Virus record (IMG/VR): IMGVR_UViG_645058813_000003
Location: 7,834 to 71,833 of that record
Direction: 5' to 3' (one strand)
DNA: 64,000 nt
DNA from: a virus
Shown here: positions 13,415-40,635 of the stretch, piece by piece
Numbering within the stretch: position 1 is the stretch's first letter
Layout of the letters: each line of letters begins with the position of its first letter
Notes under the pieces: model-generated
Database searches by the model: none
What the model was told of the DNA's origin: nothing
What the model saw: the letters and a program-made list of their open reading frames with translations, nothing else
Program-made: the position numbers and the translations under genes

Positions 13415-13418
13415 ATAG

Positions 13419-15266: not shown

Positions 15267-15303
15267 TAGGTTAGGGATTTAATCCCTTTCCTAACTAAAA
15301 CAA

Positions 15304-15603: not shown

Positions 15604-15613
15604 AGGTGTTTTA

Positions 15614-16362: not shown

Positions 16363-16366
16363 TATA

Positions 16367-16693: not shown

Positions 16694-16767
16694 ACTTTAA
16701 GCAAATAGTCTTAAAACAGGCTTTATTTTTATGTAAAAAATTAAAATTTGAAAGGATATGATAAAAA

Positions 16768-17367: not shown

Positions 17368-17447
17368 TAATTAATTTATAAAAGGCATTACTTAATTGTA
17401 GTGTCTTTTATTAAGTTAATTAAAAAAAAGAAAGGATTGATATAAAA

Positions 17448-17998: not shown

Positions 17999-18016
17999 GA
18001 GGGAGGCAATTCAAAG

Positions 18017-22835: not shown

Positions 22836-22867
22836 GATGTTAGGCTAGTAGAAATACTAGTCTTTTC

Positions 22868-24652
22868 TTGTGTTCAAATTTAAAAAATCAACAGAAAGGA
22901 TGTGATTGGTTGATACAACTATTTACTAACAATCAACAAGATATAACTAAAAATGGAATTATATTAAATCCTATATATGCCAAAATATCAAACAAGCTAA
23001 ATGGCGAAAATGAGTTTGAAATGGAAGTTTTATTAGATAAAGAGGGATTATATAAAAATATAACTAGAGATTGCATTATAACTGCACCTACTCCTGAATT
23101 TAATAGAGAGCCACAAGCATATAGAATTTATGATACTGTTAAAAACATGAGTTCTAATACAATGACAGTTTACGCTAGACATATATTTTTTGATTTAAAT
23201 AAGAAAGTTATATTTAATAAAAATGTGCAAGGGAATGGACAACAAGTATTACCTAAAATATTAGAAGATACTAAATTTAATGGACATTCTGCAAGTAATA
23301 TAACAGATATTAGACAATATAAAATGAGAAATATAATTAATGTTATAAATGGGAATGAAGAAGATAGCTTTTTAAATATATGGGGTGGAGAAATTGAGTG
23401 TAATAACTATAACCTAAATATCCCATTAAGGCGTGGTAAAGATAGAGGTATAAGAGTTAGCTTTGGCTACAATCTTGAAGACATTGAAGAAGAAATAAAT
23501 GTAGATGAAGTTGTAACTAGAATATATCCTTACAGTGGTGATCTAGTTTTAAGTGGAAATACACCTTATGTGGATAGTCCTTTGGTTACTAAGTATAGTG
23601 AAGTTTATGAACAAGCTATCGAAATGAGTGATATTAAAGTAAAAGAAAATGCAGAAGACAAAGAAGGATTTGACACTAGAAAACAAGCAGAAGCAGAGAT
23701 GATAAAAAGGTGTAAAAAACTTTTTGATGAAGGTGCTGACAAGATAAAAGCTAATTATAAAGTTAAAATGCAAGATTTATCTAAAACAACTGAATATAAA
23801 AAACTTGGTTATGATAAATTAGAAAAAATATGTCTTGGAGATACTGTACATTGCTATAACAAAAATATTAATATTGAAGTTTCAGCAAGGTGCATAAGTT
23901 ACGACTGGGATATTGTAAATGAAGAATTTATAGAGATTGAACTAGGACAATTTTTATCTAATTATATAGATAATAATTTAAGTGATTTAGATAATCTTTA
24001 TAAAAAAATAGTTATGACTGAACAATTTATAACACTTAGAGTAGATAGTTTAGATAATAAATTACATGCAGAAATTAAAATTACAGCAGACCAAATAAGA
24101 AGTGAAGTCGTGAACACAAAGAAAGAACTTGAAAGTAGTATAATACAAACTACTAGTGAGATTAGAAGTGAAGTAAAAGATGTTAAACATGATTTAAGTT
24201 CTGAAATAGACCAACAAGCTGATAAGATTAGTGCTGTAGTTCAAGAAGGTGATAGTAGTGGAAGTTGGGAACTTAAACAAGATGTTTTCAGAGTTGCTTT
24301 CAACAAAGCAGGAGGAAAAAAAACAGAGATAACTGGAGAAGGACTGGCTGTTTATGATGGAGGATTATCAGTTTATGATAGAAAAAATAATTTAGTGTTT
24401 AATGTCCTAAGTGATGGAACTGTAAGACTAGGAAACATAAATGTACAAGATATTACTATTAATAAAACTGGAAAGAGCAGTGGTTTCTATAATGCACTTT
24501 CACATATGGATGAAATGTGGATAAAAGACGTAGGTATAGGAAAATTGGTTATAGATAGTAAGGCTTTTCGTATAAGTGACGATGATTTTGGAAATGGATA
24601 TAACCTATGGCAATATATAAAAAAATGCTTACAATATTATAAGTTAATATAA
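22868..24652 (+). CDS. Tail spike/endopeptidase-like baseplate protein (Tal; likely TTG start 22910)
   Basis: LNGENEFEM, QAYRIY, VYARHIF, WGGEI, VVTRIYP, LGDTVHC; coiled-coil C-terminal half. Confidence 0.85.
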   Translation: MCSNLKNQQKGCDWLIQLFTNNQQDITKNGIILNPIYAKISNKLNGENEFEMEVLLDKEGLYKNITRDCIITAPTPEFNREPQAYRIYDTVKNMSSNTMTVYARHIFFDLNKKVIFNKNVQGNGQQVLPKILEDTKFNGHSASNITDIRQYKMRNIINVINGNEEDSFLNIWGGEIECNNYNLNIPLRRGKDRGIRVSFGYNLEDIEEEINVDEVVTRIYPYSGDLVLSGNTPYVDSPLVTKYSEVYEQAIEMSDIKVKENAEDKEGFDTRKQAEAEMIKRCKKLFDEGADKIKANYKVKMQDLSKTTEYKKLGYDKLEKICLGDTVHCYNKNINIEVSARCISYDWDIVNEEFIEIELGQFLSNYIDNNLSDLDNLYKKIVMTEQFITLRVDSLDNKLHAEIKITADQIRSEVVNTKKELESSIIQTTSEIRSEVKDVKHDLSSEIDQQADKISAVVQEGDSSGSWELKQDVFRVAFNKAGGKKTEITGEGLAVYDGGLSVYDRKNNLVFNVLSDGTVRLGNINVQDITINKTGKSSGFYNALSHMDEMWIKDVGIGKLVIDSKAFRISDDDFGNGYNLWQYIKKCLQYYKLI

Positions 24653-24697
24653 AGAAATAAAAATACCATTAAAAGATAAAATTTAACAATAGAGGTG

Positions 24698-24725
24698 TTG
24701 ACTTCATCTACGTAGATGATATAAT
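24698..24725 (+). promoter_or_regulatory. sigmaA-type promoter of the type III TA cassette with palindromic spacer
   Basis: TTGACT-16 nt-TATAAT with TG extended -10; spacer TCATCTACGTAGATGA is a perfect palindrome. Confidence 0.75.
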
Positions 24726-24820
24726 AGTAAGTGTAAAGAAAACAAACAATTTTAAAAAAATATAAGAGTTTCATGCGAATAAATGGAATTTTTAAATTAT
24801 ATTATTATTATCTACTTGAT

Positions 24821-24933
24821 AGTTAAAAGCGGTGAACCCTACCAGTAAGTGGGATTTAAACAGGCGAGTCTCTGCCATAGTGAGAAGTTAAAAAAGCGGT
24901 GAGCTTCTACCAGTAAACGAAGAGTTTAAACAG
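24821..24933 (+). ncRNA. toxI: ToxI-like RNA antitoxin (two divergent pseudoknot repeats)
   Basis: Units 24821-24863 and 24886-24933 share AGTTAAAA..GCGGTGA...CTACCAGTAA...TTTAAACAG; located between promoter and terminator upstream of ToxN. Confidence 0.8.
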
Positions 24934-24937
24934 ATGA

Positions 24938-24967
24938 GAAGATAACAATTAGGTTATCTTCTTTTTT
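24938..24967 (+). terminator. Terminator between antitoxin repeats and toxin
   Basis: GAAGATAAC-aattag-GTTATCTTC-TTTTTT, the canonical type III TA layout. Confidence 0.85.
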
Positions 24968-24968
24968 A

Positions 24969-25544
24969 ATGAGAGGAAATAAAATGGGTAAGTTAAAATT
25001 ATATAAAATAAGAGAAGATTATATAGACTTTTTACGGAAATATGATAGTAAAGTTTTATATAATAAAAATGAAAAAAGAGTGTATATTGGTGTAATATTC
25101 CCTATAAACGATACCAAATATTTTATTCCATTATCCTCACCAAAGAAAAAACATGAAACAATGAAAAACACAATAGATTTTCTGAAGATAAACAATGGAG
25201 AAGATGGAGCGATTAATTTTAATAATATGATACCAATAATTGATGATGTTGTGGTTGAATTTGATATTTTAGACGAAAAAAGAATAAGATATAAAAATAT
25301 ATTATTTAACCAAGTAAAGTTTATTAAAAGAGAATCGAAAAACATATTGGAAAATGCCATAAAATTATATGAAAAAGTAACAAAATATAACAGTTACATA
25401 AGTAAAAGATGTGTAAATTTTAAATTATTGGAAATGGTAGCAAATAACTATCAAACATATCAAGAAGTTGCAATGACAGTAGATGAAGATATAGAGCCTA
25501 AAGGAATTAAAGAGAATGTAGAAGTTGAGAAGACTAAGATTTAA
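24969..25544 (+). CDS. toxN: Type III TA endoribonuclease toxin, ToxN/AbiQ family (likely start 24984)
   Basis: LYKIREDYIDFLRKYDSKV...YIGV...YFIPLSSPK...GAINFNNMIP. Confidence 0.9.
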   Translation: MRGNKMGKLKLYKIREDYIDFLRKYDSKVLYNKNEKRVYIGVIFPINDTKYFIPLSSPKKKHETMKNTIDFLKINNGEDGAINFNNMIPIIDDVVVEFDILDEKRIRYKNILFNQVKFIKRESKNILENAIKLYEKVTKYNSYISKRCVNFKLLEMVANNYQTYQEVAMTVDEDIEPKGIKENVEVEKTKI

Positions 25545-25548
25545 GCTT

Positions 25549-25574
25549 AGTCTTTTTTATTTGCGTAAAAATAA
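25549..25574 (+). repeat. 26-bp exact repeat, copy 1 (copy 2 at 30500-30525)
   Basis: AGTCTTTTTTATTTGCGTAAAAATAA at both sites; both followed by TGAAAGGAAAGTGATA RBS. Confidence 0.85.
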
Positions 25575-25616
25575 GAAATACAGAAAAATAAAAAAATATG
25601 AAAGGAAAGTGATATT

Positions 25617-27815
25617 ATGACAACTTATAGTCCATTTGAATTAGAACCTATTTTTATAGATTTTAAAAATGAAAGCTATAATTTAGGATTAGATATACAA
25701 GCAAATCAGAACGATACTTTAACACTTAACTTTATATGTAGGAATAATGGCATTGAAGAAGATATGTCTAAATACAAAGTTGAATTAAGAGTTCACAATA
25801 ATAATACTAATACAGATTATATTCAAACTCAAAATGAAAATGTTACTTTAGGTACAGATGGCTCGGTTAAGATAGTTTGTCAAAGTTTAAAAGGAAATAA
25901 ATTAACTGCATATAGTGGACAATGTAATGGAGTATTAAGAATATTTAATACTGAAAATAAACAGAAAGCAACTAGAATAATAACAATGCGAATTATTGCT
26001 GATCCATTAGAAACAGATAGAGCCAATATATGTGAATCTACAATAACAAAATTAGAAGATTTAGACTGGATACTGAATGAAGCTTATAACATTGAAGATG
26101 AATTTAAGAAAGCTATTGAGGAAGCTATAAAACAAAAAAATGAATTAATTAAAACAACTAATGAAGCAAAAGTTATAAATAGTACATTAGCAGGAAACAT
26201 AACAACTGGAACTGAGTTAAACAGCAATCTTGTAAAATCTAATAAATTAGCAGAAACAAATCAAAAAGAATTAGATACTAGAAATACTACAGCTAGTCAA
26301 AACATAGAAACTTTAACAAATAAGAATACTACTGCAAATGAAACCATAGTTAACATTTCTGAAAAAATAGAAACAGGGAGTAAGTTAGATAATGATTTGG
26401 GTTTAAAAATTCCTATAGGTACGACTCTTAAAAATGATTTGAACACTAATATAAAAACGGGAACACAATTGAAAACTGATTTAATAGAATTAATTCCTAA
26501 AGTAGAGAAATCAAAATCTGATTTAGATACAAGCAAAATAAATGCTGATTCATCAAATACAACATTGTTAGAAACTACTAATAATGCAGAAACAAAGAAA
26601 CAGGAAGTTGTTGTAGAGTGTAAAGTAGCAGATGAAAAAATAAAACAAATGAATGAATTTGGAGATGTAACAGAAGTAGTTAAAGACGTAACATTATTAA
26701 AAGAGGAAGTAAAAACAGCTAGGGATAATGAAACAGATTTAAATGCAAGATTAGAAAGAGATAAAACTAACATTTTAAAGAAATTTAATGAATTGGACAA
26801 TCAAGATATTTTTAAAATAACAAAAGATATAAAAAATAAAAACATAAAAATTTTAGGTGATAGTATTGGGGCAGGTGTTGGAGGTACAGGATATAGTGCA
26901 ACTGGTGAAATTATAGTTGGAAACAATAAATCCAATGAAACTGGACATTGTTGGGCTAATAGTTTTAGAGATTATTTACAAAGTAAGTACAATTGTATTG
27001 TAAAAAATTGGAGTGTAAGTGGATGGAAAAGTTCAGATATAGTAACTAATATATCAACATTGATTACCGAAACAGATGATATTGTAATTTGTGCAATAGG
27101 TGCAAATAATTGTTATATTGAAAATGGAACTACATTGCTTGAGTCGGATATAAAAACAATTAATGAGTATTGTGAAAACCACAATAAAAAAGTAATTTTT
27201 ATTGGAACAATTCAAACATTAACAAGTTCTCATGAGAATAAAGGAATCAAAATGGAAGATATAGATAATTTGCTAAGAAAAGTAACTACAAATTTGAATG
27301 TATGTTTTATACCTATGTATAAATTGTTTAATGATTATCTATTATATAGTGGTGTGGACTCGTCTTTGTTCTATTATAATGAAGAACACCCTAATGATAA
27401 TGGCTATGATGCAATGTTTTATTTAATGGCAAATTATATGGGGTTCTATACAGATTTAGAACTTAGAAATAAATTATATTCTCTTTATGATACCGGTTGG
27501 CTACCCTTACCTTTAATAAATGGAACAGTAGCAAATACTATAGATATTCCTTCATATAGAAGAGTTGGAAGAATGTTATCATTAAAAGGTGAAATTGATA
27601 ACATAATAAGTACAGTTACAACTGTGGCAACCTTGCCAAGTGGATTTACTCCTAATTCAAAATTTGGGGGAAGTAGCATAGCGTTAAGTTTCTTTTGGAC
27701 AGGGGCTGATACTCAATCAAGAATGTTTATTAATAAGAATGGAAATATAATTGTTCCTAACCATACAGACACAAAAAAAATGTGGTTAGATGGGATAAAT
27801 TTTATGATAGATTAG
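25617..27815 (+). CDS. Baseplate/receptor-binding protein: BppU-like N-terminus, coiled coil, SGNH hydrolase domain, C-terminal fibre tip
   Basis: ANQNDT N-terminus; GDSIG, SGW, GANN, EEHPND (SGNH blocks); YRRVG..L.L.G C-terminal motif. Confidence 0.8.
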   Translation: MTTYSPFELEPIFIDFKNESYNLGLDIQANQNDTLTLNFICRNNGIEEDMSKYKVELRVHNNNTNTDYIQTQNENVTLGTDGSVKIVCQSLKGNKLTAYSGQCNGVLRIFNTENKQKATRIITMRIIADPLETDRANICESTITKLEDLDWILNEAYNIEDEFKKAIEEAIKQKNELIKTTNEAKVINSTLAGNITTGTELNSNLVKSNKLAETNQKELDTRNTTASQNIETLTNKNTTANETIVNISEKIETGSKLDNDLGLKIPIGTTLKNDLNTNIKTGTQLKTDLIELIPKVEKSKSDLDTSKINADSSNTTLLETTNNAETKKQEVVVECKVADEKIKQMNEFGDVTEVVKDVTLLKEEVKTARDNETDLNARLERDKTNILKKFNELDNQDIFKITKDIKNKNIKILGDSIGAGVGGTGYSATGEIIVGNNKSNETGHCWANSFRDYLQSKYNCIVKNWSVSGWKSSDIVTNISTLITETDDIVICAIGANNCYIENGTTLLESDIKTINEYCENHNKKVIFIGTIQTLTSSHENKGIKMEDIDNLLRKVTTNLNVCFIPMYKLFNDYLLYSGVDSSLFYYNEEHPNDNGYDAMFYLMANYMGFYTDLELRNKLYSLYDTGWLPLPLINGTVANTIDIPSYRRVGRMLSLKGEIDNIISTVTTVATLPSGFTPNSKFGGSSIALSFFWTGADTQSRMFINKNGNIIVPNHTDTKKMWLDGINFMID

Positions 27816-27828
27816 GAGGTGTTAAATT

Positions 27829-28167
27829 ATGGTGGAATATAAAACAATTATTGATAATAAAAATAATATTGTACAAGAATGTGTTTTGTTTATAGATGGA
27901 ATTGCTAAAGATTATATTATTAAAGGCAATCAAATAATAGTAGAATTTTTAGATAAAACATATATAAAACCTCAATGGGTTTTTGATAAAGAAGAATGGG
28001 TTGAAGGTGCCACAGATGAAGAAATAAAAGAATGGGAAGAAAGTAATAAACCAAACCCTAAAGAACCTACAGAAACAGAAATATTACAAAAACAATTACT
28101 AGAAACACAAAATTTAGTCTTAGAGTTGCAATATAAATTAACAAATAAAGATTTAGAAATAAAATAA
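27829..28167 (+). CDS. Tail-associated small protein (chaperone-like)
   Basis: KPQWVFDKEEWVEGAT...EPTETEILQKQL; synteny. Confidence 0.65.
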   Translation: MVEYKTIIDNKNNIVQECVLFIDGIAKDYIIKGNQIIVEFLDKTYIKPQWVFDKEEWVEGATDEEIKEWEESNKPNPKEPTETEILQKQLLETQNLVLELQYKLTNKDLEIK

Positions 28168-28196
28168 ATTAATATAAATGAAAGGAAAGATGTAAA

Positions 28197-28448
28197 ATGC
28201 TATACAATGTAATAAAAAATCTAATCAATCACAATTATTATGAAAGAGAGGATATGACTAATAAATTAAATGTATTCATGCTAGTTAATCAAATAGCCCA
28301 AGACCAATACTTAGAACTACTTGCTATGATTAATCCAGTTGAAAAGAAAGAGGAAGTTAATGATAAGGTTGAAGAAAAGCCAAAGGATAATATAGAAATA
28401 ACAGAGGATAAGAAAGCAGAAGAAAATACAGAAGTTGTTTCGCAATAG
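28197..28448 (+). CDS. Small tail-associated protein (XkdX-like)
   Basis: IKNLI...KLNVFMLVNQI..DQY.EL pattern. Confidence 0.6.
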   Translation: MLYNVIKNLINHNYYEREDMTNKLNVFMLVNQIAQDQYLELLAMINPVEKKEEVNDKVEEKPKDNIEITEDKKAEENTEVVSQ

Positions 28449-28630
28449 TAAAATATGATGAATATTAAGTGGTATATAAAATAGCAATTTTAATAACTTA
28501 TTAGGGTTGAAAAACGTAGTAAACATGAGTATTTAAGAGAATAAAGAAGTTGTTAGAGACGGTAAATTAGATTTATGGTCTTTTTTATTGTCTCTAAAAT
28601 TAATAATAAAAAAAGAATGGAGTGACATTA

Positions 28631-28778
28631 ATGAAAATAATTTTAAAGGATAAGCTAAAAGAGGCATTGTCTGAGTTATCAAAGGCTTTAAGTAATAAAA
28701 GTAGATATGACGAAAAACTTATGAATATTATATTAGGACAAATTTTAATGTTAAGTGAATTATTAAAAGAGGATTAAG
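28631..28778 (+). CDS. Small hypothetical protein (not in ORF track)
   Basis: GGAGTG RBS; MKIILKDKLKEALSELSKAL...LLKED*; coordinates approximate. Confidence 0.4.
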
Positions 28779-28790
28779 CCCTCTTTTAAT

Positions 28791-29441
28791 TTAATAGTTA
28801 TATCTTATTGTAAAAATAGGATCTTGTTGAATTTCAAAACTAACTATATTTTTATTTACATTACAGATTTGAGTTATTGTCTCATCAGCTACAGATTGTC
28901 CATTAAAATCTTTTGCATCTGTAATAGTTGGATTAATGGTTGCACCTATAGGAGCTATCAATGTAAGTTGAAGTTTTCCACCATTGCAAATTCCTAATCC
29001 ATCAAAAGGTAATAATACCTTGAACTCAAAATTATCTGTTTCTACTGGATAAAGTCTATACTTATAAGAAACTAGATATCTGCAATTGTTATTTTCTAAA
29101 GGTTCAAGTGGAGTAACGTGCATACAGGTTAACATTAAAGCTTTTTCAATGTCGTCTAATAGTTCAGTCATATTATTAGTATCAACATTTTCAGAAAAAC
29201 TATTAATGTCTTGTCTTAATTTACTTTTTAACATTGGGTATATTGGAGTTTTCCCATCTTTTAGTAAAGCTATTGCTTTTGATGGAATATCTTCGATATG
29301 TGGAATAGCCCATTCGTAATCAGTAGAGATAGGTTCATCAGTTTGTATTAACATTGTAACATGTGCAATATCGTAGTCTAGTCCATGTCTTGAAGTTCCA
29401 TGAACAACTGTATTAACATCTTGTAGAATAATATTTGGCAT
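28791..29441 (-). CDS. Hypothetical moron protein, antisense to the late operon
   Basis: 216-aa ORF with AGGAGG RBS; no family recognised. Confidence 0.8.
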   Translation of the reverse strand: MPNIILQDVNTVVHGTSRHGLDYDIAHVTMLIQTDEPISTDYEWAIPHIEDIPSKAIALLKDGKTPIYPMLKSKLRQDINSFSENVDTNNMTELLDDIEKALMLTCMHVTPLEPLENNNCRYLVSYKYRLYPVETDNFEFKVLLPFDGLGICNGGKLQLTLIAPIGATINPTITDAKDFNGQSVADETITQICNVNKNIVSFEIQQDPIFTIRYNY

Positions 29442-29722
29442 TTAAAGCCACCTCCTAAATATTAAATTTATTTCTAATATTAGGATACTATAAAATGTTA
29501 CACTAATCAACAAATATCACAAAGATATTACTTAATATTGTGTCTAAATTTTTGTTACGATTATATACATAGTTATATACATATAGTTTACAAATAATGG
29601 TAAAATATAATTATATATAAAAGGGTATGTTATTAATATACCTATAAAATTTACTTAATTGTAAAATTTTTAATGAAAAAGGTAAATTTTTATTTAAAAA
29701 TGTAAACAAAGGTGGTATAATT

Positions 29723-29947
29723 ATGTTAATAAAAAGATATAAATATGAGAAGATACAATTAAGAAGTAGAGAGGTGAAGAATATGGAAGCTAGAGTAACA
29801 AGAAGATTAGATTTTTCTAAATTGAATTTTTCTAATAGAATTATAAGTAGTGAAGAAGCTTTAAAAGATGTAGAACCTTTCGATTTTGATAAAGAAATAT
29901 TGGCAGGTAATAAAAAAATTATAGTTATTGGATGCAATAAAAAGTAA
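29723..29947 (+). CDS. Small protein, candidate antitoxin (start may be 29782)
   Basis: Directly upstream of PemK-like gene; RBS before MEARV. Confidence 0.5.
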   Translation: MLIKRYKYEKIQLRSREVKNMEARVTRRLDFSKLNFSNRIISSEEALKDVEPFDFDKEILAGNKKIIVIGCNKK

Positions 29948-29970
29948 ATAACGGATGGGACTGAAAATCA

Positions 29971-30387
29971 ATGTGTGAAATTGGAGATATTATAGAAATA
30001 AAATCATATAAACATGATCCTAATGTATTGCATCAGCATCCATTTATAATAATTGATGACAATAATGGTACTATTAAAGGATTAGATTTTAATTTAATAA
30101 CTGTGGTTATGTCTTCTGTTAAAAATGAAGAACAAAAGAACTGGAAATTATCAAAATATCCAAGTAATATGGGAATTAATATTGATGATAAAAATATAAC
30201 AGAACCCAAATATCAAAATAAAAATGGATATGTTAAAACAGAACAATTTTATTATTTTAACAAAGAAAAAATCAAGTATAGATTGGTTGGTTGTGTAACA
30301 CCAGAATATTTAAATGAACTGTATGATTTTATTGAAGGATTAGAGAACAAAGGTATATCTATAGATCAAATAGTAGACAATTTATAG
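29971..30387 (+). CDS. PemK/MazF-like fold protein
   Basis: GDII...HPFIII...TVVMSS...YVKTEQFYYF.KEKI...VG.V..E.L pattern. Confidence 0.55.
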   Translation: MCEIGDIIEIKSYKHDPNVLHQHPFIIIDDNNGTIKGLDFNLITVVMSSVKNEEQKNWKLSKYPSNMGINIDDKNITEPKYQNKNGYVKTEQFYYFNKEKIKYRLVGCVTPEYLNELYDFIEGLENKGISIDQIVDNL

Positions 30388-30499
30388 ATATGTAAATGGA
30401 TTTACATATAGTGATTAAGAACTTGGTACAAGCTGTATTGAGTTCTTTTTTGTATGTAATTATAAATAAATAATATGATTAAAGATTTGTGATTGTACA

Positions 30500-30525
30500 A
30501 GTCTTTTTTATTTGCGTAAAAATAA
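30500..30525 (+). repeat. 26-bp exact repeat, copy 2
   Basis: Identical to 25549-25574; precedes endolysin. Confidence 0.85.
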
Positions 30526-30567
30526 TAGAAATATATTGAAAAATAATGAAAGGAAAGTGATATATAA

Positions 30568-31335
30568 ATGAAAATAGGATTAGATTATGGACATTGTTTA
30601 AGTGGCTCTGATACAGGAGCAGAAGGAAACGGATATAAAGAACAAGATTTAACTAGAAAAGTAGGTAAATTAGTAAAACAAAAATTAGAAAGCTTAGGTT
30701 ATACAGTAATAGAACTTGCTGTAGATTATTCCAATTCAGTTAATGAAAGTTTAAATGCAAGAATAAATAAAGCAAATAATAATAGTGTAGAATGGTGTGT
30801 TTCAATTCATTTAAATTGTGGAGGGGGACATGGAACAGAGGTGTTTACATATGGAGCAAAAGAAATAACAGAAGCTAGAAATATATTAAATAATATTTGT
30901 TCCTTAGGATATACAAACAGAGGTATAAAAGATGGTAGCAATTTAGCTATGGTAAGAAGACCACAGGCAAAAGCAATGTTAATAGAATTATGCTTTATAG
31001 ATAGCTCATCTGATATGAATAGTTTTAATGCTGATAATATGGCTAATGCAATTGTAAAAGGATTAACTGGGCAAACTGTAAATAGTAATAGTGGTACATG
31101 GAAACAAGATACTATAGGTTGGTGGTATGCATATTCTAATGGAAGTTATCCTAAATCACAATGGTTTAAAGTAGGACAAGACTGGTATTATGCAGATGAA
31201 AAAGGATATTGTTATCAAAACAGGTGGTTAAAACATAAAGATAATTGGTATTATTTTAAGGATAATTGTAAGATGACTACGAATGAAACATTAACATATA
31301 AATTTAATAGCAATGGAGAGTGGATTAATGGATAG
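30568..31335 (+). CDS. Endolysin: N-acetylmuramoyl-L-alanine amidase (Amidase_3) plus cell-wall-binding repeats
   Basis: LDYGH..., E, SIHLN, LIELCFID; C-terminal WYY-type repeats. Confidence 0.95.
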   Translation: MKIGLDYGHCLSGSDTGAEGNGYKEQDLTRKVGKLVKQKLESLGYTVIELAVDYSNSVNESLNARINKANNNSVEWCVSIHLNCGGGHGTEVFTYGAKEITEARNILNNICSLGYTNRGIKDGSNLAMVRRPQAKAMLIELCFIDSSSDMNSFNADNMANAIVKGLTGQTVNSNSGTWKQDTIGWWYAYSNGSYPKSQWFKVGQDWYYADEKGYCYQNRWLKHKDNWYYFKDNCKMTTNETLTYKFNSNGEWING

Positions 31336-31498
31336 ATTATATAAATTATTAAGTGCTAGGTTTTTAGTTGTATTACTGACTACCCTAGCATTTTGTTATT
31401 TAGCAGTAACTAAGTCTTTAACAACAGAATTTACTACAATATACATAGTAATAATTAATTATTATTTCTATAAAGAAAGACAAACAAAAGAAGGGTAG
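31313..31498 (+). CDS. Holin-like two-TM protein (likely start 31328)
   Basis: LLSARFLVVLL...FTTIYIVIINYYF. Confidence 0.7.
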   Translation: MESGLMDRLYKLLSARFLVVLLTTLAFCYLAVTKSLTTEFTTIYIVIINYYFYKERQTKEG

Positions 31499-31509
31499 GT
31501 GGTAAATAT

Positions 31510-31695
31510 ATGGGATTAGAAGAAAATACAGTACAAAATATTTTACAGAGATTAACTAAAATAGAAACTTTGTTAGAGGTAGATGTAAAAAACTTAGAAG
31601 CAAGAGTTTCTAAGTTAGAAGGTAACTCAACATGGTTATGGAGAACAATAGGTGGGGCAATAGTTGGAGCTTTAGGAGTTTTAATATTTAAATAA
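31510..31695 (+). CDS. XhlA-like holin/hemolysin
   Basis: RLTKIETLL...RVSKLE...WLWRTIGGAIV. Confidence 0.8.
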   Translation: MGLEENTVQNILQRLTKIETLLEVDVKNLEARVSKLEGNSTWLWRTIGGAIVGALGVLIFK

Positions 31696-31752
31696 AGTAA
31701 AATAGGACAATGCAAATTACACCGTCATCTGAGTGTTTCTTCAAAATAACTA

Positions 31753-31781
31753 TTGCATTTTATTGTAAAAAGTTATATTAT
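31753..31781 (+). promoter_or_regulatory. Candidate sigmaA promoter pointing across the right junction
   Basis: TTGCAT-17 nt-TATTAT. Confidence 0.4.
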
Positions 31782-31899
31782 TATACCAATAAATAAATTA
31801 GAGATTAAGCCAATATATTAAGCGTATAAACTATTAATTTATTGGGTTAGAAATTTATAATAATTAGGACGGTTAAACGTAGTAATATCAAAGCTTTAG

Positions 31900-32013
31900 G
31901 CTATTAATAAGCTATTCGGATATACTATTCACAACGATAAGGGCAAGCCTACAAATAGTGAATTTATAGCAATTATTGCTGATAAATTAAGACTTAAAAA
32001 TAAAGTATCATAG
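31900..32013 (+). pseudogene. spo0A: Orphan 3' fragment of spo0A (last 37 codons) at the prophage right junction
   Basis: [37 protein letters not shown] is the conserved Spo0A C-terminus; in-frame TAG immediately upstream, no start codon; spoIIM-xerD downstream fits the usual clostridial neighbourhood. Confidence 0.92.
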
Positions 32014-32099
32014 TAATATTTTACTAGGCTGAGTATATATAATTTTTATAAAATATAGCCAACAAATATTATTTTATACCAATAAATATATGAATATTC

Positions 32100-32157
32100 A
32101 ATAAGACATCATTTAATCAGTTTTTAATGAGAATTGATTATGGTGTCTTATTTTTTT
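32100..32157 (+). terminator. Terminator downstream of spo0A
   Basis: AATAAGACATCAT...ATGGTGTCTTATT-TTTTT long hairpin. Confidence 0.75.
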
Positions 32158-32318
32158 GTTTCAAAATAGGAGTATTTGTGTTTATATAGAAAATTTTATA
32201 AAGAAGAAACAAAAGAAATATTATTAATTATATATGTTAATAAGTATATTCTAATATTGAGGTTTGTACAGTTTAAGTAATAATGGGATATATAAAATAA
32301 TACTTTAATAGTGTAAAA

Positions 32319-32666
32319 TCAATTCCTATATGAAAGCAATGATACTACAAATTTAGAATCTTGATAAAGATCATAATAAATTTGTTCTCCATCTAATTTT
32401 TTTATAAATTTGTTTCCATAGTAGTTCTTTATAAAACCTAAACTTGTTTTACTAGAATCTAATGTATATTTAATTTGTTTACCATCAAAAGTAAGAATTC
32501 TAAATTCAGGTTCTCCTTCTATAGTAAAAACTAAAACATTTATACTATATGCTCTACCAAATAATACATTATCAAAAAATTCACATACAGGCAATTTATT
32601 ATCGATGATGCCAATACTACTTATAGTTGAATCTATAGAAAATCTTTTTAATAAAAATTTAAGCAT
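32319..32666 (-). CDS. DUF4362-like protein
   Basis: TIEGEPEFRILTFDGKQIKYTLD resembles the DUF4362 signature as recalled. Confidence 0.5.
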   Translation of the reverse strand: MLKFLLKRFSIDSTISSIGIIDNKLPVCEFFDNVLFGRAYSINVLVFTIEGEPEFRILTFDGKQIKYTLDSSKTSLGFIKNYYGNKFIKKLDGEQIYYDLYQDSKFVVSLLSYRN

Positions 32667-33163
32667 AATAACCTCTTTTAATCTTGATAATACTTAATAT
32701 ATAGAATTGGTTTATTTTATGTGATCAAAACATGACTATTTTGATATAAGTAAATAAGTGTATATGATATTTGATTTTGTGGATTTTAGAAAATAATAGA
32801 ATACTAAATTAAAAGTATATCAACAAAGTGGAATACTCAAAACAAAGTGATTATTTTGGAATTTATTGAAAAATATAAGGTATAAAATAATTATGTGAAT
32901 TGTGAGCTTATGGTTTTTAATGATATAGAATTATTGGTTGAAAATGATTATGTTAGAATCAGCTATAAGAATGGAATTATATACTTCAAGAGCTAAGAGG
33001 TTATTTTTAAATCTTTTAATTTTCATGTAAATAGTTATTGATTATTTCACTAGAGTTAGTAATGATGTGATGGAAGTAAATGAAATATATTCGAAAGAAA
33101 TTAGTAATAATACTTGTGTTGAATGTTAAAAAATATTGTTTTAAAAGATAAAAAATAATAAAA

Positions 33164-33170
33164 TGTCGAA
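33164..33170 (+). promoter_or_regulatory. Consensus 0A box
   Basis: TGTCGAA upstream of TATAAT and small ORF; a 7-mer alone is weak evidence. Confidence 0.3.
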
Positions 33171-33187
33171 ATTTATCAACAAATATC

Positions 33188-33412
33188 TTGGAAATATGTT
33201 ATAATATTTATAGATATAAACCAAGGAGGAAAAAAATGATAAAAGAATGTAAAAAAGGCTATGATGTAAATATAAGAAAATTTGGAGTTCAAACAAATGT
33301 AATTTTACCATTTGCATCTATTAATAGTGATGGCACAAGCTCTGTAAGATGTAAAACTGATAATTGTGAATTCATTAATGTATGCGAATATAAAGATTAT
33401 ATAAAAGATTAA
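33188..33412 (+). CDS. Small Cys-containing hypothetical (likely start 33236)
   Basis: AGGAGG RBS before MIKEC. Confidence 0.6.
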   Translation: MEICYNIYRYKPRRKKMIKECKKGYDVNIRKFGVQTNVILPFASINSDGTSSVRCKTDNCEFINVCEYKDYIKD

Positions 33413-33599
33413 GATAAGATCTTTCTTTTTATTTTAAATAAAAATATTTTTAATTGTATATAGTAATTTGAGAAGATGATCCTAATATAAGGGACATCTT
33501 CTTTTTATTTTAAGAGTAGATAGGAATAGCATATAGTATGTATCAGATATTTAAACTTTGTGTAATATAATATTAAAATCAATAATTATAAGGTGAAGT

Positions 33600-34235
33600 A
33601 TGGATTTTAATAATTTTAGCGGAATTGAAGAATTTTTGAATTATTTAGGATATGAAAAAATTACAGAAGATGATGATGAATCAACAGAATCCAATGAATC
33701 AAGCGATGAAAGCGATACAAGCAATTGCGGGTGTAAAATAGATCCAACAGCAGGGGCAAGTACAGACTGGTGTGCTAAGTTGAATTTAGATATACCAGGA
33801 GGGTTTCAAGATATAAATCCAATATTGTTTATAACCTTAGGAGAAGTTGTAGGAAATATTATTTCTGGACAGTTACCTTATAATGTTGCTAATATTATAT
33901 CTAATCTTATTATTCTTGTCGGTCAAATAATAGAAACTTGTGGTACTCAGCAACAGTATTACGAGATAGGGCCAGGACGGTATTTTAATTGCGCGTATAA
34001 AAATATTGAAAATCCTTTTTGTGATTTTGATGTGGATAAAAAAAAGGAGTCAAGTAATACCAGTGATTTAATTAAAGATGAAAACTTGAAAAGAGATAAA
34101 GACTCAATACAAATATTTAAAAATATAAATGATATATATTTAAAATTAGAAAATTTTAAATTTGAATTTAATAAGATATCAACTAAAATCAATGAATTAG
34201 AAAAAAGAATAGAAAAGATGGAAAATAGTAAATAG
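33600..34235 (+). CDS. Hypothetical protein, paralog 1
   Basis: Shares CKIDPTAGAST...GFQD..P...GE...LVGQ.IET...QQQY.E.GPGRY with next gene. Confidence 0.85.
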   Translation: MDFNNFSGIEEFLNYLGYEKITEDDDESTESNESSDESDTSNCGCKIDPTAGASTDWCAKLNLDIPGGFQDINPILFITLGEVVGNIISGQLPYNVANIISNLIILVGQIIETCGTQQQYYEIGPGRYFNCAYKNIENPFCDFDVDKKKESSNTSDLIKDENLKRDKDSIQIFKNINDIYLKLENFKFEFNKISTKINELEKRIEKMENSK

Positions 34236-34335
34236 ATTAATAGTAAAGGTTACTTATAGAATTAATATTAGATTTTTATATGGATAGATAAAAGATAAAT
34301 TGTAATAGTTTTTATAAATTATATATAGGTGAAGT

Positions 34336-34884
34336 ATGAATAATAATAGTTTTTATGATTTAGATGAGATATTAAAGCAGCTTGGCTATAAAAAGTGTAA
34401 AAATAATAATTCGGATAGTAATTGTAAAGAAAAAGATGAAGAAACAGAGTGCAAAATTGATCCAACTGCTGGAGCAAGTACAAATGACTGTCAAAATTTA
34501 AACTTAGATATGCCACATGGATTTCAAGACTTAGATCCTATGTTAATGCTAGTTATTGGAGAATTAATAGCAAATGTAATATCTAGTAAATTACCGTCTA
34601 GCTTATTAAATGCTTATGGAAACTGGCTACAATTAGTAGGACAAGTAATTGAAACATTTAATGCACAACAGCAGTATCAAGAATGTGGCCCTGGAAGGTA
34701 CTATAATCCAATGTATAAAAATGTGGCTAATCCATTTTGCTCAAATGAGAATGTAAAATTTGAAAAAGAAGGGAAAAGTCATAAAAGAAGAGAAAAAAAT
34801 AATTATGATAATATAAAAACTTTAACTTTAAGGATAGATCAATTGGAAAAAGAGATAGAAGAATTAAAGAAAAAATCTAAATAA
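34336..34884 (+). CDS. Hypothetical protein, paralog 2
   Basis: As above; C-terminal coiled coil; terminator at 34887-34920. Confidence 0.85.
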   Translation: MNNNSFYDLDEILKQLGYKKCKNNNSDSNCKEKDEETECKIDPTAGASTNDCQNLNLDMPHGFQDLDPMLMLVIGELIANVISSKLPSSLLNAYGNWLQLVGQVIETFNAQQQYQECGPGRYYNPMYKNVANPFCSNENVKFEKEGKSHKRREKNNYDNIKTLTLRIDQLEKEIEELKKKSK

Positions 34885-34929
34885 AAACCTCTAATGAGTA
34901 TTTTACATTAGAGGTATTTTAAAGTTGAA

Positions 34930-35400
34930 TTATTCAGTAGAGTTTTTATTTATATCCATAGCTTCTAATTGAAGAAAAGATTGAAGTCTAATAAAATTAG
35001 CATAAATACTTAATAAATATGAAAATTCAATACCCAAAAAGGCATTTAAATTAATATCTTCATCTGTATTATTAATTTTAAACTTCGCCTCTTTTACTCT
35101 TTCAGCAGAAACTATCCATAAAATTGTATATCCTATTAAATTTAATTTTTGTCCTGATACAAAAACACTAAAAGGAACTATGCCAGAATCATTTACATCT
35201 AAGGCATCTGCAATATCTAAATTTGCTGCACTTAAAAAAGTAGAATAACCTATAGCTAGAAAGGTAGCACCAATTTTTTCAAGATTAGGTAAAGTAATAT
35301 CTAGGTTTTTAAGAAAAGCATCTATGTTATCTGTACTGTTTTCGCTATTGTTTTTTTTAGATTCAGTATCAGTATTATTATCACAATTCTTATAGTTCAT
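34930..35400 (-). CDS. Hypothetical hydrophobic protein (possibly spore-associated)
   Basis: GGAGG RBS; CATATATT sigmaE/K-like -10 upstream on the minus strand. Confidence 0.7.
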   Translation of the reverse strand: MNYKNCDNNTDTESKKNNSENSTDNIDAFLKNLDITLPNLEKIGATFLAIGYSTFLSAANLDIADALDVNDSGIVPFSVFVSGQKLNLIGYTILWIVSAERVKEAKFKINNTDEDINLNAFLGIEFSYLLSIYANFIRLQSFLQLEAMDINKNSTE

Positions 35401-35777
35401 TTATACCTCCACAAAAAGAGATTCACAATAATATATGATAATAAAAAAATATACGTACATATGAATTTTAATATAATAAGAAATTAGAACTAATTACTTC
35501 TTTAATTATACATATGTTTAAAGAAAATCTAACTTATAAATAAGAGGGGCCGTATCAAAATAAATTATTATAAAAAAATATTTTTTAATAGCTCTAAACA
35601 TATTAGAAAGTATTAAATAAAATTTGGTATAAAACAGAGAAGAGACTTCACATATTGCATTTTTATGCATTATGTGATAGTCCCTTTTAATTTTAAATAA
35701 TACTAATTAAATACAAAGTAATATGAAAATTAGTATTATAATGTATTATATTTAGATATTAACAAGCAAATTTAAAT

Positions 35778-36383
35778 TTATTCAATATCATCGAAATAAT
35801 TCATATAAGGTTGATCATTATATAAATTTAAAGCTTTATTTTTTCCAAGTTCAATTTTTTCTTCTATATATAATGCTTCATCTGTAAATAAATAATCAAG
35901 GTCCATATCCTCGCACCAAAGATACTTAGCATAGATAATTAATTCATCTATAGATATAGATGAACATCTTATTATATTCTCATCTAGATTTTCTAATTTA
36001 ATTTCTGCATTAAGATAACCATTCGGTATTTTTCCATCAAAACTAGAGTTGCCTTTTATGATTACTTCATCAGATAATTCAATACCTCTAGTAGAAAATC
36101 TTATTATAGGCTTTTCACACCAAGAATAAGGGTATGAAAGTAAATTAAATTCTTCAGGTTTTATGGCTACAAATTCAATATCATTTGTTTCTTCATTAGA
36201 ACATGTATATATTGAACCAGAAGTTCTAGCTTGAAGGTATAAAAGATTTTCTTTTTCATCTCCGTTATTAAAACAAAACCAAGTTTCATAAAAATGTTCA
36301 TTTGTAATGTAAATATTCAATATTTTCACCTCATTAATTATATTTATATAAATTAAAAATGTATTAGTTTTAAAAATTAACAT
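35778..36383 (-). CDS. Hypothetical protein (true start probably downstream)
   Basis: 201-aa ORF; RBS nearer the internal ILNIY start. Confidence 0.65.
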   Translation of the reverse strand: MLIFKTNTFLIYINIINEVKILNIYITNEHFYETWFCFNNGDEKENLLYLQARTSGSIYTCSNEETNDIEFVAIKPEEFNLLSYPYSWCEKPIIRFSTRGIELSDEVIIKGNSSFDGKIPNGYLNAEIKLENLDENIIRCSSISIDELIIYAKYLWCEDMDLDYLFTDEALYIEEKIELGKNKALNLYNDQPYMNYFDDIE

Positions 36384-36602
36384 TTACTTTAAGATAATAA
36401 TTTTTTTAGAATAAAGTTAATCCTAGTCTAGTGTACATAAAATAATATTGACATGCAATATAGAAACCTTTACCATATGAGTATAAGACTTCTAATTATA
36501 CTTTATAAAAGTATAATTATTTAAATTTAACTTGTCAATTGTTAAAATGAAATTGTTTATACCATGTAAGAAAGAGTAATGGAAAAGAGAGGGGATTAAA
36601 TT

Positions 36603-37025
36603 ATGAATTCAAAAAAATATGGTCAAGATGTGTTTATTGAAAAAATAAATGAATTAAAGAATAAAGAAAATTTCACTTTAGATGATGGGATTAAATCTAT
36701 AAAAAATTTATATGATATTAAAGATGAATGTGAATTACTTTCTATAAGAGATACAATAGACATTGTTATTCTTAAAATAGCAGAAAAAATATCTTTTAGT
36801 AAAATAGCAGTAAATATATTTAAATATAAAAAATTTAGAAGTAAATTGTCTGTAGATCAAAATAAAATAATCTGGTATGAGGGTGTTGAACGTGTGGGAT
36901 CAGCAGATGGAATAAAGCAAGTTATTTTTAGAGAAACAGATAATATGGAAGAAATTTTAATAGAAAAATTTAATGGAAGATCAATAAGAATTAATGAGAA
37001 AGCTTTTATTTTAGGATGGGAATAA
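36603..37025 (+). CDS. Hypothetical protein
   Basis: 140-aa ORF, GAGGGG RBS. Confidence 0.75.
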   Translation: MNSKKYGQDVFIEKINELKNKENFTLDDGIKSIKNLYDIKDECELLSIRDTIDIVILKIAEKISFSKIAVNIFKYKKFRSKLSVDQNKIIWYEGVERVGSADGIKQVIFRETDNMEEILIEKFNGRSIRINEKAFILGWE

Positions 37026-37133
37026 ATTAAAACTTATGTGATTTAAGATAGGAATTAATCCTATCTTAATATTTAAAAATAAATTGGTATCGTTACCAAA
37101 GCATAATTTTAGTGAATTAAGGAGAGGATAATA

Positions 37134-38705
37134 ATGACAATAAAATTTTTAATAATAGTAGTATTTGTAATAGTAGGAGGAATAATGTATTTAAATTTAG
37201 AACAAGACAAAGCTAATGATGTAGAAAAAAAAGAAGACAAAGTTTACATAGAAGATAAAAAAGTGACAAACAAAACTATGATGCAATATTTTGAATGGTA
37301 TTATCCTAATGATGGTTCTCTTTGGAACAAAGTAAAAGAACGTTCGAAGGAATTAAGTAAAAAAGGGATTACTGCATTGTGGCTTCCACCCGCTTATAAA
37401 GGGGTAGGCGGTATTAATGATGTTGGATATGGTGCTTATGATTTGTATGATTTAGGAGAATTTGATCAAAAAGGAACCATAAGGACTAAATATGGTACCA
37501 AAGAAGAATATTTGGATGCTATAAATGAGGCACATAATAATAATATAGAAGTATATGCAGATGTTGTATTAAATCATAAAGCAGGTGCGGATGAAAGTGA
37601 ATGTGTAAAAGCACAATTAGTAGATAGTAATAACAGAAATAATATTATAGGAGAAGAAAAAGAAATAAGGTCATTTACTGTATTTAATTTTAAGGGAAGA
37701 AATGAGAAGTATTCATCTTATAAGTGGAATGCAAAAGATTTTGATGGTGTGGATTTTGATGATTTAACAAAACAAAATGGAATATTTAAATTTGTAGGTA
37801 AAGAATGGGAAAAAGATGTAGACGATGAAAATGGGAATTTTGATTTTTTAATGTGTGCAGATTTAGATATAGATAGTAGAGATGTTGTAGAAGAACTTAA
37901 AACGTGGGGAAATTGGTATATAAATGAATGTAAATTAGATGGTTTTAGATTAGATGCAATAAAACATATAAAATTTGATTTTTTTACAGAATGGTTAAAT
38001 GATATTAGAAGTAAAAAAAGTGACAATGTATTTGTTGTTGGTGAATATTGGTCTGGAGATATAAATAAATTAAAATATTATATTAGTAAATCACAAAATG
38101 TTATGTCGTTATTTGATGTACCACTTCATTATAGATTTTTTGAAGCAAGTAATTTAGAAGAAAACTTTGATATGAGAACATTAACTCAAAATACTTTATT
38201 AGAATACGATGAAAAAATTTCAGTAACTTTTGTTGATAATCATGACACTGAACCAGGTCAGGCTCTTGAATCTTGGGTTAAGCCATGGTTTAAATTAATA
38301 GCATACACATTTATATTAACAAGGCAAGAAGGATATCCATGTATATTTTACGGAGATTATTATGGAATTCCTGAAAAGGGATTTGAGGGTTTTAAGAATC
38401 AGTTGGATGTGATTTTAAATGTAAGAAAAAATTATGCTTATGGTGATCAATGTGATTATTTTGATGATAAAAATATAATTGGGTGGACTAGACAAGGTGA
38501 TTTAATGCACGATAATTCAGGTGTTGCGGTATTAATAAGTAATGGTAATAATGGCAGTAAAAAGATGTCTATGGGGAGCAAAAATATAAGTACTACTTTT
38601 ATAGATATAACAGGAAATATACAAGAAGAAATACTAATAGACAATGAGGGCAATGGAATTTTTAAAGTAAATAATAAATCATATTCAATATGGATAAAAA
38701 AATAA
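37134..38705 (+). CDS. Alpha-amylase (GH13, liquefying-amylase type) with N-terminal hydrophobic leader
   Basis: MMQYFEWY, DVVLNH, GFRLDAIKH, VGEYW, FVDNHD conserved regions. Confidence 0.95.
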   Translation: MTIKFLIIVVFVIVGGIMYLNLEQDKANDVEKKEDKVYIEDKKVTNKTMMQYFEWYYPNDGSLWNKVKERSKELSKKGITALWLPPAYKGVGGINDVGYGAYDLYDLGEFDQKGTIRTKYGTKEEYLDAINEAHNNNIEVYADVVLNHKAGADESECVKAQLVDSNNRNNIIGEEKEIRSFTVFNFKGRNEKYSSYKWNAKDFDGVDFDDLTKQNGIFKFVGKEWEKDVDDENGNFDFLMCADLDIDSRDVVEELKTWGNWYINECKLDGFRLDAIKHIKFDFFTEWLNDIRSKKSDNVFVVGEYWSGDINKLKYYISKSQNVMSLFDVPLHYRFFEASNLEENFDMRTLTQNTLLEYDEKISVTFVDNHDTEPGQALESWVKPWFKLIAYTFILTRQEGYPCIFYGDYYGIPEKGFEGFKNQLDVILNVRKNYAYGDQCDYFDDKNIIGWTRQGDLMHDNSGVAVLISNGNNGSKKMSMGSKNISTTFIDITGNIQEEILIDNEGNGIFKVNNKSYSIWIKK

Positions 38706-38716
38706 TAAAAAAATTT

Positions 38717-38747
38717 TAGATGACTTAATACGAGTCATCTATTTTTT
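38717..38747 (+). terminator. Rho-independent terminator
   Basis: TAGATGACT-taatacg-AGTCATCTA-TTTTTT. Confidence 0.8.
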
Positions 38748-38905
38748 ATGTAATTAAAAAGTTTATAAAGCAAGTGTTTATCACATTCTTAAAGAATTTA
38801 TAAAAGAAATTCTAATATTTTAATTAACATATATTTTGTTAAGTATTAAGAATAATATGGAAATATTAAACATAGTATAAAGTAGAGTAACTCAAGGAGG
38901 AATAA

Positions 38906-39538
38906 GTGGTGAATTATATGGTGAATAAGCTTGGTCAAACCTTTAAAGATAAAAAAGTATATTTTTTCATGGTATTAATAATGTTTTGCATCGGAATATC
39001 TTTTGGACTTTATGTAGTAAAGTACATGAGCGAATCTAACAGAAATGATTTGTTAAGTTATTTTTCAAGTTTTACATCTTCGATAGGGGACATGCCTATT
39101 AATTATGAAAATTTGTTGATTAATGTTATAAAAAAGAATATGTTGCTAATTATACCTATATTCATGTTTGGTTTTACTTTTTTTGGAATGCCGTTCATAT
39201 TAGTTTTAGATATGTTTAAAGGGTTTACGTTAGGATATACGTTTTCATTTATACTAACAACATTTCAGGGCAAAGGTATTGGACTAGCATTAGTATCTGT
39301 AATTCCTCAAAATTTAATTTATATTCCTTGTTTTATAGCATTAAGTGTTATAGCATTAGCTATGTCAACTCAAAAATTTAAAAGTAAGTTTTTTAAAAGA
39401 GCAAATTTCAATGATCCATTTTTTAATTCTTTAGGAAATAAGTTGATTGTAATTTTGGGATTCTTTGTATTTGCAGCGATTATAGAAACTTATGTGTCAC
39501 CTAATTTTATAAAATTTGTGGTTACTAAATTTTATTAG
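38906..39538 (+). CDS. spoIIM: Stage II sporulation protein M
   Basis: Multi-TM; KGFTLGYT...VIPQNLIYIP...IETYVSP; upstream of xerD. Confidence 0.9.
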   Translation: MVNYMVNKLGQTFKDKKVYFFMVLIMFCIGISFGLYVVKYMSESNRNDLLSYFSSFTSSIGDMPINYENLLINVIKKNMLLIIPIFMFGFTFFGMPFILVLDMFKGFTLGYTFSFILTTFQGKGIGLALVSVIPQNLIYIPCFIALSVIALAMSTQKFKSKFFKRANFNDPFFNSLGNKLIVILGFFVFAAIIETYVSPNFIKFVVTKFY

Positions 39539-39658
39539 TTTTATAATTTAAAAAACATATATAGAAATTTATAAACTTAAGATATAAATTTTAATTAAAG
39601 AGGAAAAATGATGATTTTGTCAAATATTAATTCATAATCAATGGTATAGGAGAGAGTA

Positions 39659-40537
39659 ATGGTAGATAGTATAAATAACTATAAAGAATATTTATTTGAT
39701 AGTGGAAAAAGTGAAAATACTATATATGCTTATGTAACAGATGTGACATTATATCTTAAGTTTTTGGATAAAAAAGGTATAGATATATATAAGAGTGATA
39801 AATTAACAGTTATGGCATATATTCAATACTTATTAGAGTCAGGAAAATCGGAAAGATCTATAAATAGAATAGTTATAAGTCTTAGGAGTTTTTACTCTTA
39901 TTTAAAAAGTCAGTCATTAATAAATGAGGTACCAAAGATAGAGTATAAAAGTTCCAAAAATAATAGAAAGTTACCACAAATTTTAACAGTAGATGAAGTA
40001 GATAAAATAATTAGAACAGTAGAAAAAGATTGTCCAAAAGGAATTAGAGATAATGCATTACTAGAACTTATGTATGCTACAGGGATGAAGGTATCTGAAC
40101 TAATATCCTTGAATGTAGATGATATTAACTTGGAATTACATTTTGTAAGATGTACTGATAGTAGAAATTTTGAAAGATTAATACCTATAGGTAGAAGTGC
40201 ATGTAAAGCGTTAAATGAATACCTTAGCATAAGATATAAAATAGCTGAATGTGGAGTGCCTAACCTATTTGTTAATTTAAATGGAAATAAATTAACAAGA
40301 CAAGGAATTTGGAGAATAGTAAAAGAGTATTCTAAAAGGGCTCATATAGACAAGGATGTAAATTTAAATACATTTAGACATTCTTTTGCAGTACATTTAC
40401 TTCAAAATGGTGCAAATGTAAGAGCTGTACAAAAGTTACTTGGAAATCAAGTATTAACATATATGGACACTTATTATGAAATCATTAATAATGATAAAAT
40501 TAATTTTATATATATGAATACACATCCAAGAGCTTGA
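39659..40537 (+). CDS. xerD: XerD-like tyrosine recombinase with degenerate active site
   Basis: SENTI.AY..D, RDNALLELMYATG, RHSFA, HPRA end; spoIIM-xerD synteny. Confidence 0.85.
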   Translation: MVDSINNYKEYLFDSGKSENTIYAYVTDVTLYLKFLDKKGIDIYKSDKLTVMAYIQYLLESGKSERSINRIVISLRSFYSYLKSQSLINEVPKIEYKSSKNNRKLPQILTVDEVDKIIRTVEKDCPKGIRDNALLELMYATGMKVSELISLNVDDINLELHFVRCTDSRNFERLIPIGRSACKALNEYLSIRYKIAECGVPNLFVNLNGNKLTRQGIWRIVKEYSKRAHIDKDVNLNTFRHSFAVHLLQNGANVRAVQKLLGNQVLTYMDTYYEIINNDKINFIYMNTHPRA

Positions 40538-40592
40538 TTTCATGCGGGTTTACAACAAATGTATAAAAATGAAAAAGAGGGTATTTAGGCTA

Positions 40593-40635
40593 TTTGCCAC
40601 CCATTTGCCACCGGAAGAATCAACTCGGTGGCAAA
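40593..40635. repeat. Integrase arm-type-like sites at attL
   Basis: TTTGCCACC at 40593 and 40604 (direct), GGTGGCAAA at 40627 (inverted). Confidence 0.65.

Follow-up and report, generated by a model that had tools for sequence, protein, structure and literature searches.

The DNA analysed here (the window) is a stretch of 64,000 nucleotides corresponding to bases 7834-71833 of an 85,993-bp "provirus" record in IMG/VR. This record joins two prophages that are separated by about 8.6 kb of host chromosome, and the window contains most of the first of these (prophage 1), the host DNA and part of the second. The features of the window that bear on the junction between prophage 1 and the host are as follows.

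1..31897, + strand: right-hand ~32 kb of prophage 1 (identity to locus L045; both junctions on contig ACSC01000002.1)
30568-31335, + strand: Amidase_3 endolysin (Pfam)
31313-31498, + strand: small 61-aa open reading frame in the lysis cassette (ORF list)
31510-31695, + strand: XhlA (Pfam)
31898..32006, + strand: attR copy of a 109-bp perfect direct repeat equal to spo0A nt 704-812 (megablast 109/109, alignment)
31900..32013, + strand: orphan non-coding spo0A tail, 37 codons and TAG (translation, Pfam)
32007..32013, + strand: host-original final 7 nt of spo0A, A TCA TAG (alignment with attL and the empty site)
32014..40600, no strand assigned: host chromosome between the two prophages (Pfam; colinearity with C. 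aquiflavi and a MAG)
32100..32159, + strand: native spo0A intrinsic terminator, a hairpin at 32100-32152 and a U-run, stranded behind the tail in the lysogen
32319-32666, - strand: DUF4362-like gene (Pfam)
37134-38705: alpha-amylase (Pfam)
38906-39538: spoIIM (Pfam)
39659-40537: xerD-like recombinase (Pfam)

Translation of 31801-32016 showed that the last 37 residues of Spo0A are encoded at 31900-32010 and are followed by the stop codon TAG at 32011-32013. An in-frame TAG lies just upstream (31897-31899), and no in-frame ATG, GTG or TTG is found within the tail at 31900-32010. The encoded peptide matches positions 74-104 of the 104 positions of the Pfam domain Spo0A_C (E 5.7e-9, 32.4 bits, above the curated cut-off) and shares 100% identity with residues 236-272 of the Spo0A protein of the host species itself. 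With this part of Spo0A_C alone, no start codon and no receiver domain, the tail fails as a functional spo0A, and the 86-kb IMG/VR record contains no second spo0A-like piece elsewhere. The original prediction, made from the letters of the window, had described just such a fragment, a Spo0A C-terminus of 37 codons with a TAG before it and no start codon, lying directly after the phage lysis genes. Translation, the Pfam match and the protein identity bear out this description, and the Amidase_3 and XhlA genes are found upstream.

The host region beyond the tail is colinear with C. aquiflavi and with a MAG, both of which have an intact spoIVB-spo0A. The genes spoIIM and xerD had been expected to follow the tail; both are present, but they lie 7-8 kb downstream and are not adjacent to it. 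The DNA 3′ of spo0A (32014-33100) is variable among strains: one phage-free strain (L051) has no DUF4362-like gene, and a second (L054) has it, as does the window. The adjacent host genes at 33600-34235 and 34336-34884 form a paralogous pair (49% identity over 141 aa, E 2e-48) with the common motif CKIDPTAGAST...LNLD.P.GFQD, and neither has a Pfam match. In an alignment at 24% identity, the XerD-like protein carries K at the position of the first catalytic Arg of integrases (ATGMK) and N at that of the last His (LGNQ), which raises the possibility of an inactive or otherwise unusual Xer. The second prophage (40656-64000) starts right after this gene with an integrase on the minus strand (40656-41807) and codes for an IrrE-like protein, HTH repressors, DUF6731, a T5orf172/MUG113 protein and ParA/ParB, followed by structural genes.

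The left junction, the direct repeat and the empty site

The IMG/VR record was placed on the 3.86-Mb contig ACSC01000002.1 (GCA_000175335.1) through the exact identity of its left-end phage protein, and the right junction was put on the same contig through a lookup of the endolysin. Two publications give this contig as the reference genome for Beluga, a strain of C. botulinum type E1 (PMC8810926; PMC3672017). Position 1 of the record equals position 8518 of locus L045, with 100% identity across 12,395 bp. The record begins 20 nt past the stop codon of the integrase gene, which indicates that the boundary caller cut away the integrase and the left junction; its first 9 kb consist of phage early genes, and the integrase and the 5′ part of spo0A are absent there. 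Prophage 1 is 41,034 bp long, counted between the first bases of the attL and attR repeats, and its left ~9 kb, which include the integrase and attL, fall outside the window. It is this trimming of the provirus boundary that created the look of a truncated spo0A.

At attL, the gene order on the contig is dxs, a methyltransferase with S4/FtsJ domains, NAD kinase, argR, recN, spoIVB, spo0A, the integrase and the phage early genes. The spo0A gene at this junction is complete, with 272 codons, a full Response_reg receiver domain and all of Spo0A_C (positions 1-104 of 104, 155.9 bits), and its encoded C-terminus is identical in protein sequence to the tail in the window. The integrase gene starts 152 nt 3′ of the spo0A stop codon on the same strand and encodes a tyrosine recombinase of 338 aa (PF00589 Phage_integrase, 112 bits). 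In the alignment, the motifs R (TGMR), HxxR (HGLR), H (LGHS) and Y (SAYL) can be recognised, and we take them to be the catalytic residues. A tblastn search of GenBank phages found no close relative of this integrase, the best matches being integrases of Bacillus phages at 23-26% identity.

Comparison of the two junctions by megablast revealed a perfect match of 109/109 nt between attL (L045 7214-7322) and attR (window 31898-32006), which corresponds to nt 704-812 of spo0A. The sequences that follow the repeat are T AGC TAA at attL and A TCA TAG at attR, and each codes for Val-Ser-stop. Prophage 1 does lie within the reading frame of spo0A, as had been proposed, and joins it at codon 235/236; the accompanying claim that the last 37 codons were cut off does not hold, as the gene is complete at attL. 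Inspection of the left junction, which had been suggested together with the original prediction, found a rebuilt gene with an identical protein tail and so refutes the split reading. The alternative offered alongside it, a replacement 3′ end supplied by the phage at the left junction, proved correct as to the supply and incorrect as to a possibly variant product, since the protein is identical and the changes are synonymous only.

A phage-free assembly (L066) provided the corresponding empty site. Its spo0A equals the attL gene over nt 1-812 and equals the window from spo0A nt 704 to 400 nt beyond the stop codon. The L066 and attL genes differ solely at nt 813-816 and 819, five synonymous changes (GTA TCA TAG in L066 versus GTT AGC TAA at attL). 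The empty site is therefore composed of the left side of attL and the right side of attR, as predicted for attB, and this composition proves a clean site-specific insertion. More empty sites are present in L051 and L054. Identical copies of attL occur in GCA_011017015.1 and in one Logan run, and an identical attR occurs in GCA_011013855.1; this recurrence of the junctions in other assemblies indicates that the structure is not an assembly artefact.

Because attL and attR are identical across the full repeat, the crossover point cannot be placed more exactly than within these 109 bp, and we infer that the exchange took place at some point inside the shared segment. In another lysogen (L057), the haplotype is of the host type through nt 807 and of the phage type from nt 813; this switch may be a faint hint that the exchange took place close to the 3′ boundary of the repeat. 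Short motifs common to the P arm and the P′ arm, such as CGTAGTRATATCAA (E-values of 0.005-0.3), could be arm-type integrase sites. In a phage-free MAG close to the host (L003, 2020-2040; SpoIIM 99% identical), spo0A ends in GTT AGC TAA, which is also the ending supplied by the phage, and no P′ arm comes after it. An element that once integrated and later excised may have left this ending behind, or it may have arisen by chance.

We observed the anatomy of both junctions, the empty site and the intact reading frame directly, and likewise the family-wide association of the integrase clade with spo0A described below. With a probability of roughly 95%, in our estimate, the window shows the attR of a 41-kb temperate phage that was silently integrated by its own tyrosine integrase in the 3′ end of spo0A of C. 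botulinum E1 Beluga, with the gene end carried by the phage rebuilding a complete Spo0A. The phage attachment site would bear a copy of spo0A nt 704-812 together with its own synonymous last codons, stop codon and terminator hairpin. Recombination in the shared 109 bp would then yield a complete 272-codon spo0A at attL that encodes the same protein, with its 3′ end now made of phage DNA and with the phage terminator and then the integrase gene behind it. The original gene end and the native terminator would be moved 41 kb downstream, where they form the untranslated relic seen in the window, and Spo0A function would be kept in the lysogen and after excision alike.

Terminator hairpins and the integrase ribosome-binding site

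The exchange of gene ends also exchanges the terminators. RNA folding gave the native spo0A terminator hairpin a free energy of -22.3 kcal/mol (z -5.84), and the same sequence is found 3′ of spo0A in the empty-site strains. The phage hairpin between spo0A and the integrase gene (L045 about 7422-7482) folds with -25.5 kcal/mol (z -8.65). Its 3′ limb carries the integrase Shine-Dalgarno sequence GGAGG, which is followed by a U-run and then by the TTG start codon.

In a survey of 29 loci of other species in which an integrase homologue lies behind spo0A or a spo0A tail, an analogous hairpin ends the intergenic region (147-174 nt) in 28, with free energies of -18.7 to -30.6 kcal/mol. Alignment of the 28 distinct sequences yielded a consensus stem of 16 pairs; compensatory double changes were seen at 12 of these, and the sense strand has many G-U pairs. 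These results suggested that the phage hairpin serves as the terminator of the rebuilt spo0A while shielding int from spo0A transcription, and that it presumably masks the ribosome-binding site of the integrase.

An integration that leaves the protein unchanged could nevertheless not be neutral if the swap of terminator and 3′ untranslated region alters the fate of the spo0A mRNA or couples int to spo0A transcription, and thereby shifts the timing of sporulation. The phage hairpin does take the place of the native terminator, and the design of a Shine-Dalgarno sequence in the 3′ limb, a U-run and the int start has been kept with covariation in about 28 elements. However, the hairpin resembles an ordinary insulator-terminator, and the predicted strengths of the native and phage structures (-22.3 versus -25.5 kcal/mol) are similar; we consider such an effect quite unlikely. 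A more specific proposal, in which the hairpin acts as a regulatory device and read-through from the spo0A promoter, which is strongly induced as sporulation begins, or an altered stability of spo0A mRNA, ties prophage integration or excision, or Spo0A dosage, to the sporulation decision, is a long shot. If it were true, lysogens and their phage-free siblings would differ in the timing of sporulation and of traits controlled by Spo0A.

Comparison with known integration systems

Phage 21, e14 and NC-SV integrate within icd of Escherichia coli (PMC12803456). Like them, prophage 1 is a temperate element with a tyrosine integrase that enters the 3′ part of a conserved protein gene and leaves the host gene functional, and the displaced original gene end stays as a pseudo-fragment at the far junction. 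The features that mark integration of the icd type were found at prophage 1: a direct repeat of the gene tail, a full-length target reading frame on the integrase side, a matching empty site and an adjacent recombinase. Elements that integrate in icd also bring a replacement gene end, as Hill, Gray and Brody reportedly described in 1989. Compared to the icd elements, prophage 1 differs in its target, which is spo0A in Clostridiaceae, and in the make-up of its gene end, where a 109-bp segment is identical and only the 7 nt beyond it are visibly derived from the phage. Furthermore, its integrase has no sequence kinship to named GenBank phage proteins (best 26% identity), and it brings a terminator whose 3′ limb holds the ribosome-binding site of the integrase.

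Many phages and islands target tRNA and tmRNA genes. The attP of these elements bears the 3′ end of the gene, the gene is rebuilt at the junction proximal to the integrase, and the site is reused serially by many elements. Prophage 1 resembles them in that the target is regenerated on the integrase side and the site is used by different elements. It differs from them in that spo0A codes for protein, so the phage copy must keep the amino acids, and only synonymous differences were seen. Collectively, the mechanism is classic 3′-end integration with a replacement gene end borne by the element.

Elements that interrupt sporulation genes form a further group, which includes skin in sigK, SPbeta in spsM, vfbin in spoVFB and yin in yabG (PMC10747680). 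Prophage 1 resembles these in that a prophage, or an element like one, is located within a sporulation gene of an endospore-forming host. While the reading frames in that group are broken until the element excises, the spo0A frame at attL is complete in the lysogen, and excision is not needed for function. Skin and SPbeta excise by means of a serine recombinase with a directionality factor (PMC10747680), whereas the recombinase of prophage 1 is a tyrosine integrase.

These differences bear on the original proposal that spo0A is truly split, with Spo0A lost until the phage excises, so that the lysogen is Spo0A-negative and the phage acts as a gatekeeper at sporulation entry in the manner of skin and SPbeta. 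The window alone, which offers just a 37-codon tail with no start codon right behind the lysis genes, does invite this reading. Against it stand the complete 272-codon spo0A at attL, equal to the empty-site allele except for five synonymous nucleotides among the last seven, and a tyrosine integrase placed to rebuild the gene. Studies in Beluga also speak against it: wild-type Beluga makes heat-resistant spores, and an in-frame deletion of spo0A codons 3-270 abolishes them, while sporulation returns when the gene is restored in situ or supplied on a plasmid (PMC7873358). Sporulation in this lysogen is thus spo0A-dependent, and a split spo0A is exceedingly improbable.

The spo0A 3′ end as a shared docking site

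Silent integration of prophage 1 in spo0A is one case among several at this site. Strains with exactly the same Spo0A protein carry other elements, with integrases of 337 aa or 334 aa (85% and 81% identical to the 338-aa enzyme), and L057, again with the same Spo0A protein, carries a different phage with the same 338-aa type of integrase. The empty sites L051 and L054 and the locus L059 code for this Spo0A protein as well. At L059 (6700-10500), a decayed remnant of 3.7 kb with a truncated integrase and phage fragments is flanked by two copies of the same repeat.

In a set of 10 loci with the same Spo0A protein, selected for their differing neighbourhoods and not at random, 6 synonymous variable sites fall in the first 703 nt of spo0A and 19 in the final 116 nt (Fisher p 1.6e-12). 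Copies borne on elements that replaced the gene end time and again would explain this roughly 19-fold synonymous excess in the final segment, and the pattern fits a constraint on such copies to leave the protein unchanged.

Homologues of the integrase (E <= 1e-40) were found in 68 of 388 sampled Clostridiaceae genomes. At the best 30 loci (50-81% identity), a full-length spo0A lies directly upstream on the same strand in 27, only a spo0A tail in two and neither in one. IMG/VR holds six more records with only a spo0A tail (five proviruses and one linear contig, with tails that begin between residues 225 and 236) and one record in which a near full-length spo0A is followed by a related integrase. 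In a related contig of 34.8 kb (G001/L044), rated 99% complete, the endolysin, a 43-codon spo0A tail and the integrase are all interior; this arrangement looks like the attP of a related free phage and could also represent a tandem array. Across Clostridiaceae, the 3′ end of spo0A is a docking site in wide use by a dedicated clade of tyrosine integrases. A full-text search of the literature found no report naming spo0A as an attachment site.

A tblastn search of GenBank phages with a 45-aa tail also returned 11 faecal contigs labelled "UNVERIFIED Bacteriophage sp." as candidates for attP. The three that were examined are host DNA, with a full-length spo0A and no related integrase, and two of them (L070 and L071) also have spoIVB upstream. 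In a related provirus (L042), the orphan spo0A tail (2646-2795) has Ser in place of the Ala that matches A257 of B. subtilis (IISDKL). Another spo0A-like piece (aa 208-239, 69% identity) lies about 1 kb downstream of this tail, at 3760-3849, and an older element with a longer tail may have left it there as a scar.

Decayed remnants at the site in other strains, such as that in L059, and stacked tails in other proviruses might suggest that the tail in the window is likewise a relic of an old rearrangement or earlier element, unrelated to prophage 1, whose true ends would lie elsewhere; yet the isogenic empty site lacks precisely the DNA enclosed by the 109-bp repeat, this DNA has the integrase at one end and the lysis genes at the opposite end, and the 86-kb record has no other spo0A-like piece, so that this explanation has almost no probability.

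Silent integration of prophage 1 means that no phage gates sporulation entry at this spo0A. New here are a spo0A attachment site in an experimentally studied strain, its isogenic empty site, a family-wide count and a conserved hairpin that joins terminator and ribosome-binding site. Genetic work on spo0A in Group II C. botulinum has Beluga as its model strain. To the right of spo0A this strain has prophage DNA, and a second copy of a 109-nt segment of the gene lies 41 kb away. The published deletion of codons 3-270 takes out nt 704-810 of the attL repeat and leaves 2 nt of it; such mutants are therefore probably unable to excise prophage 1 by means of its integrase.
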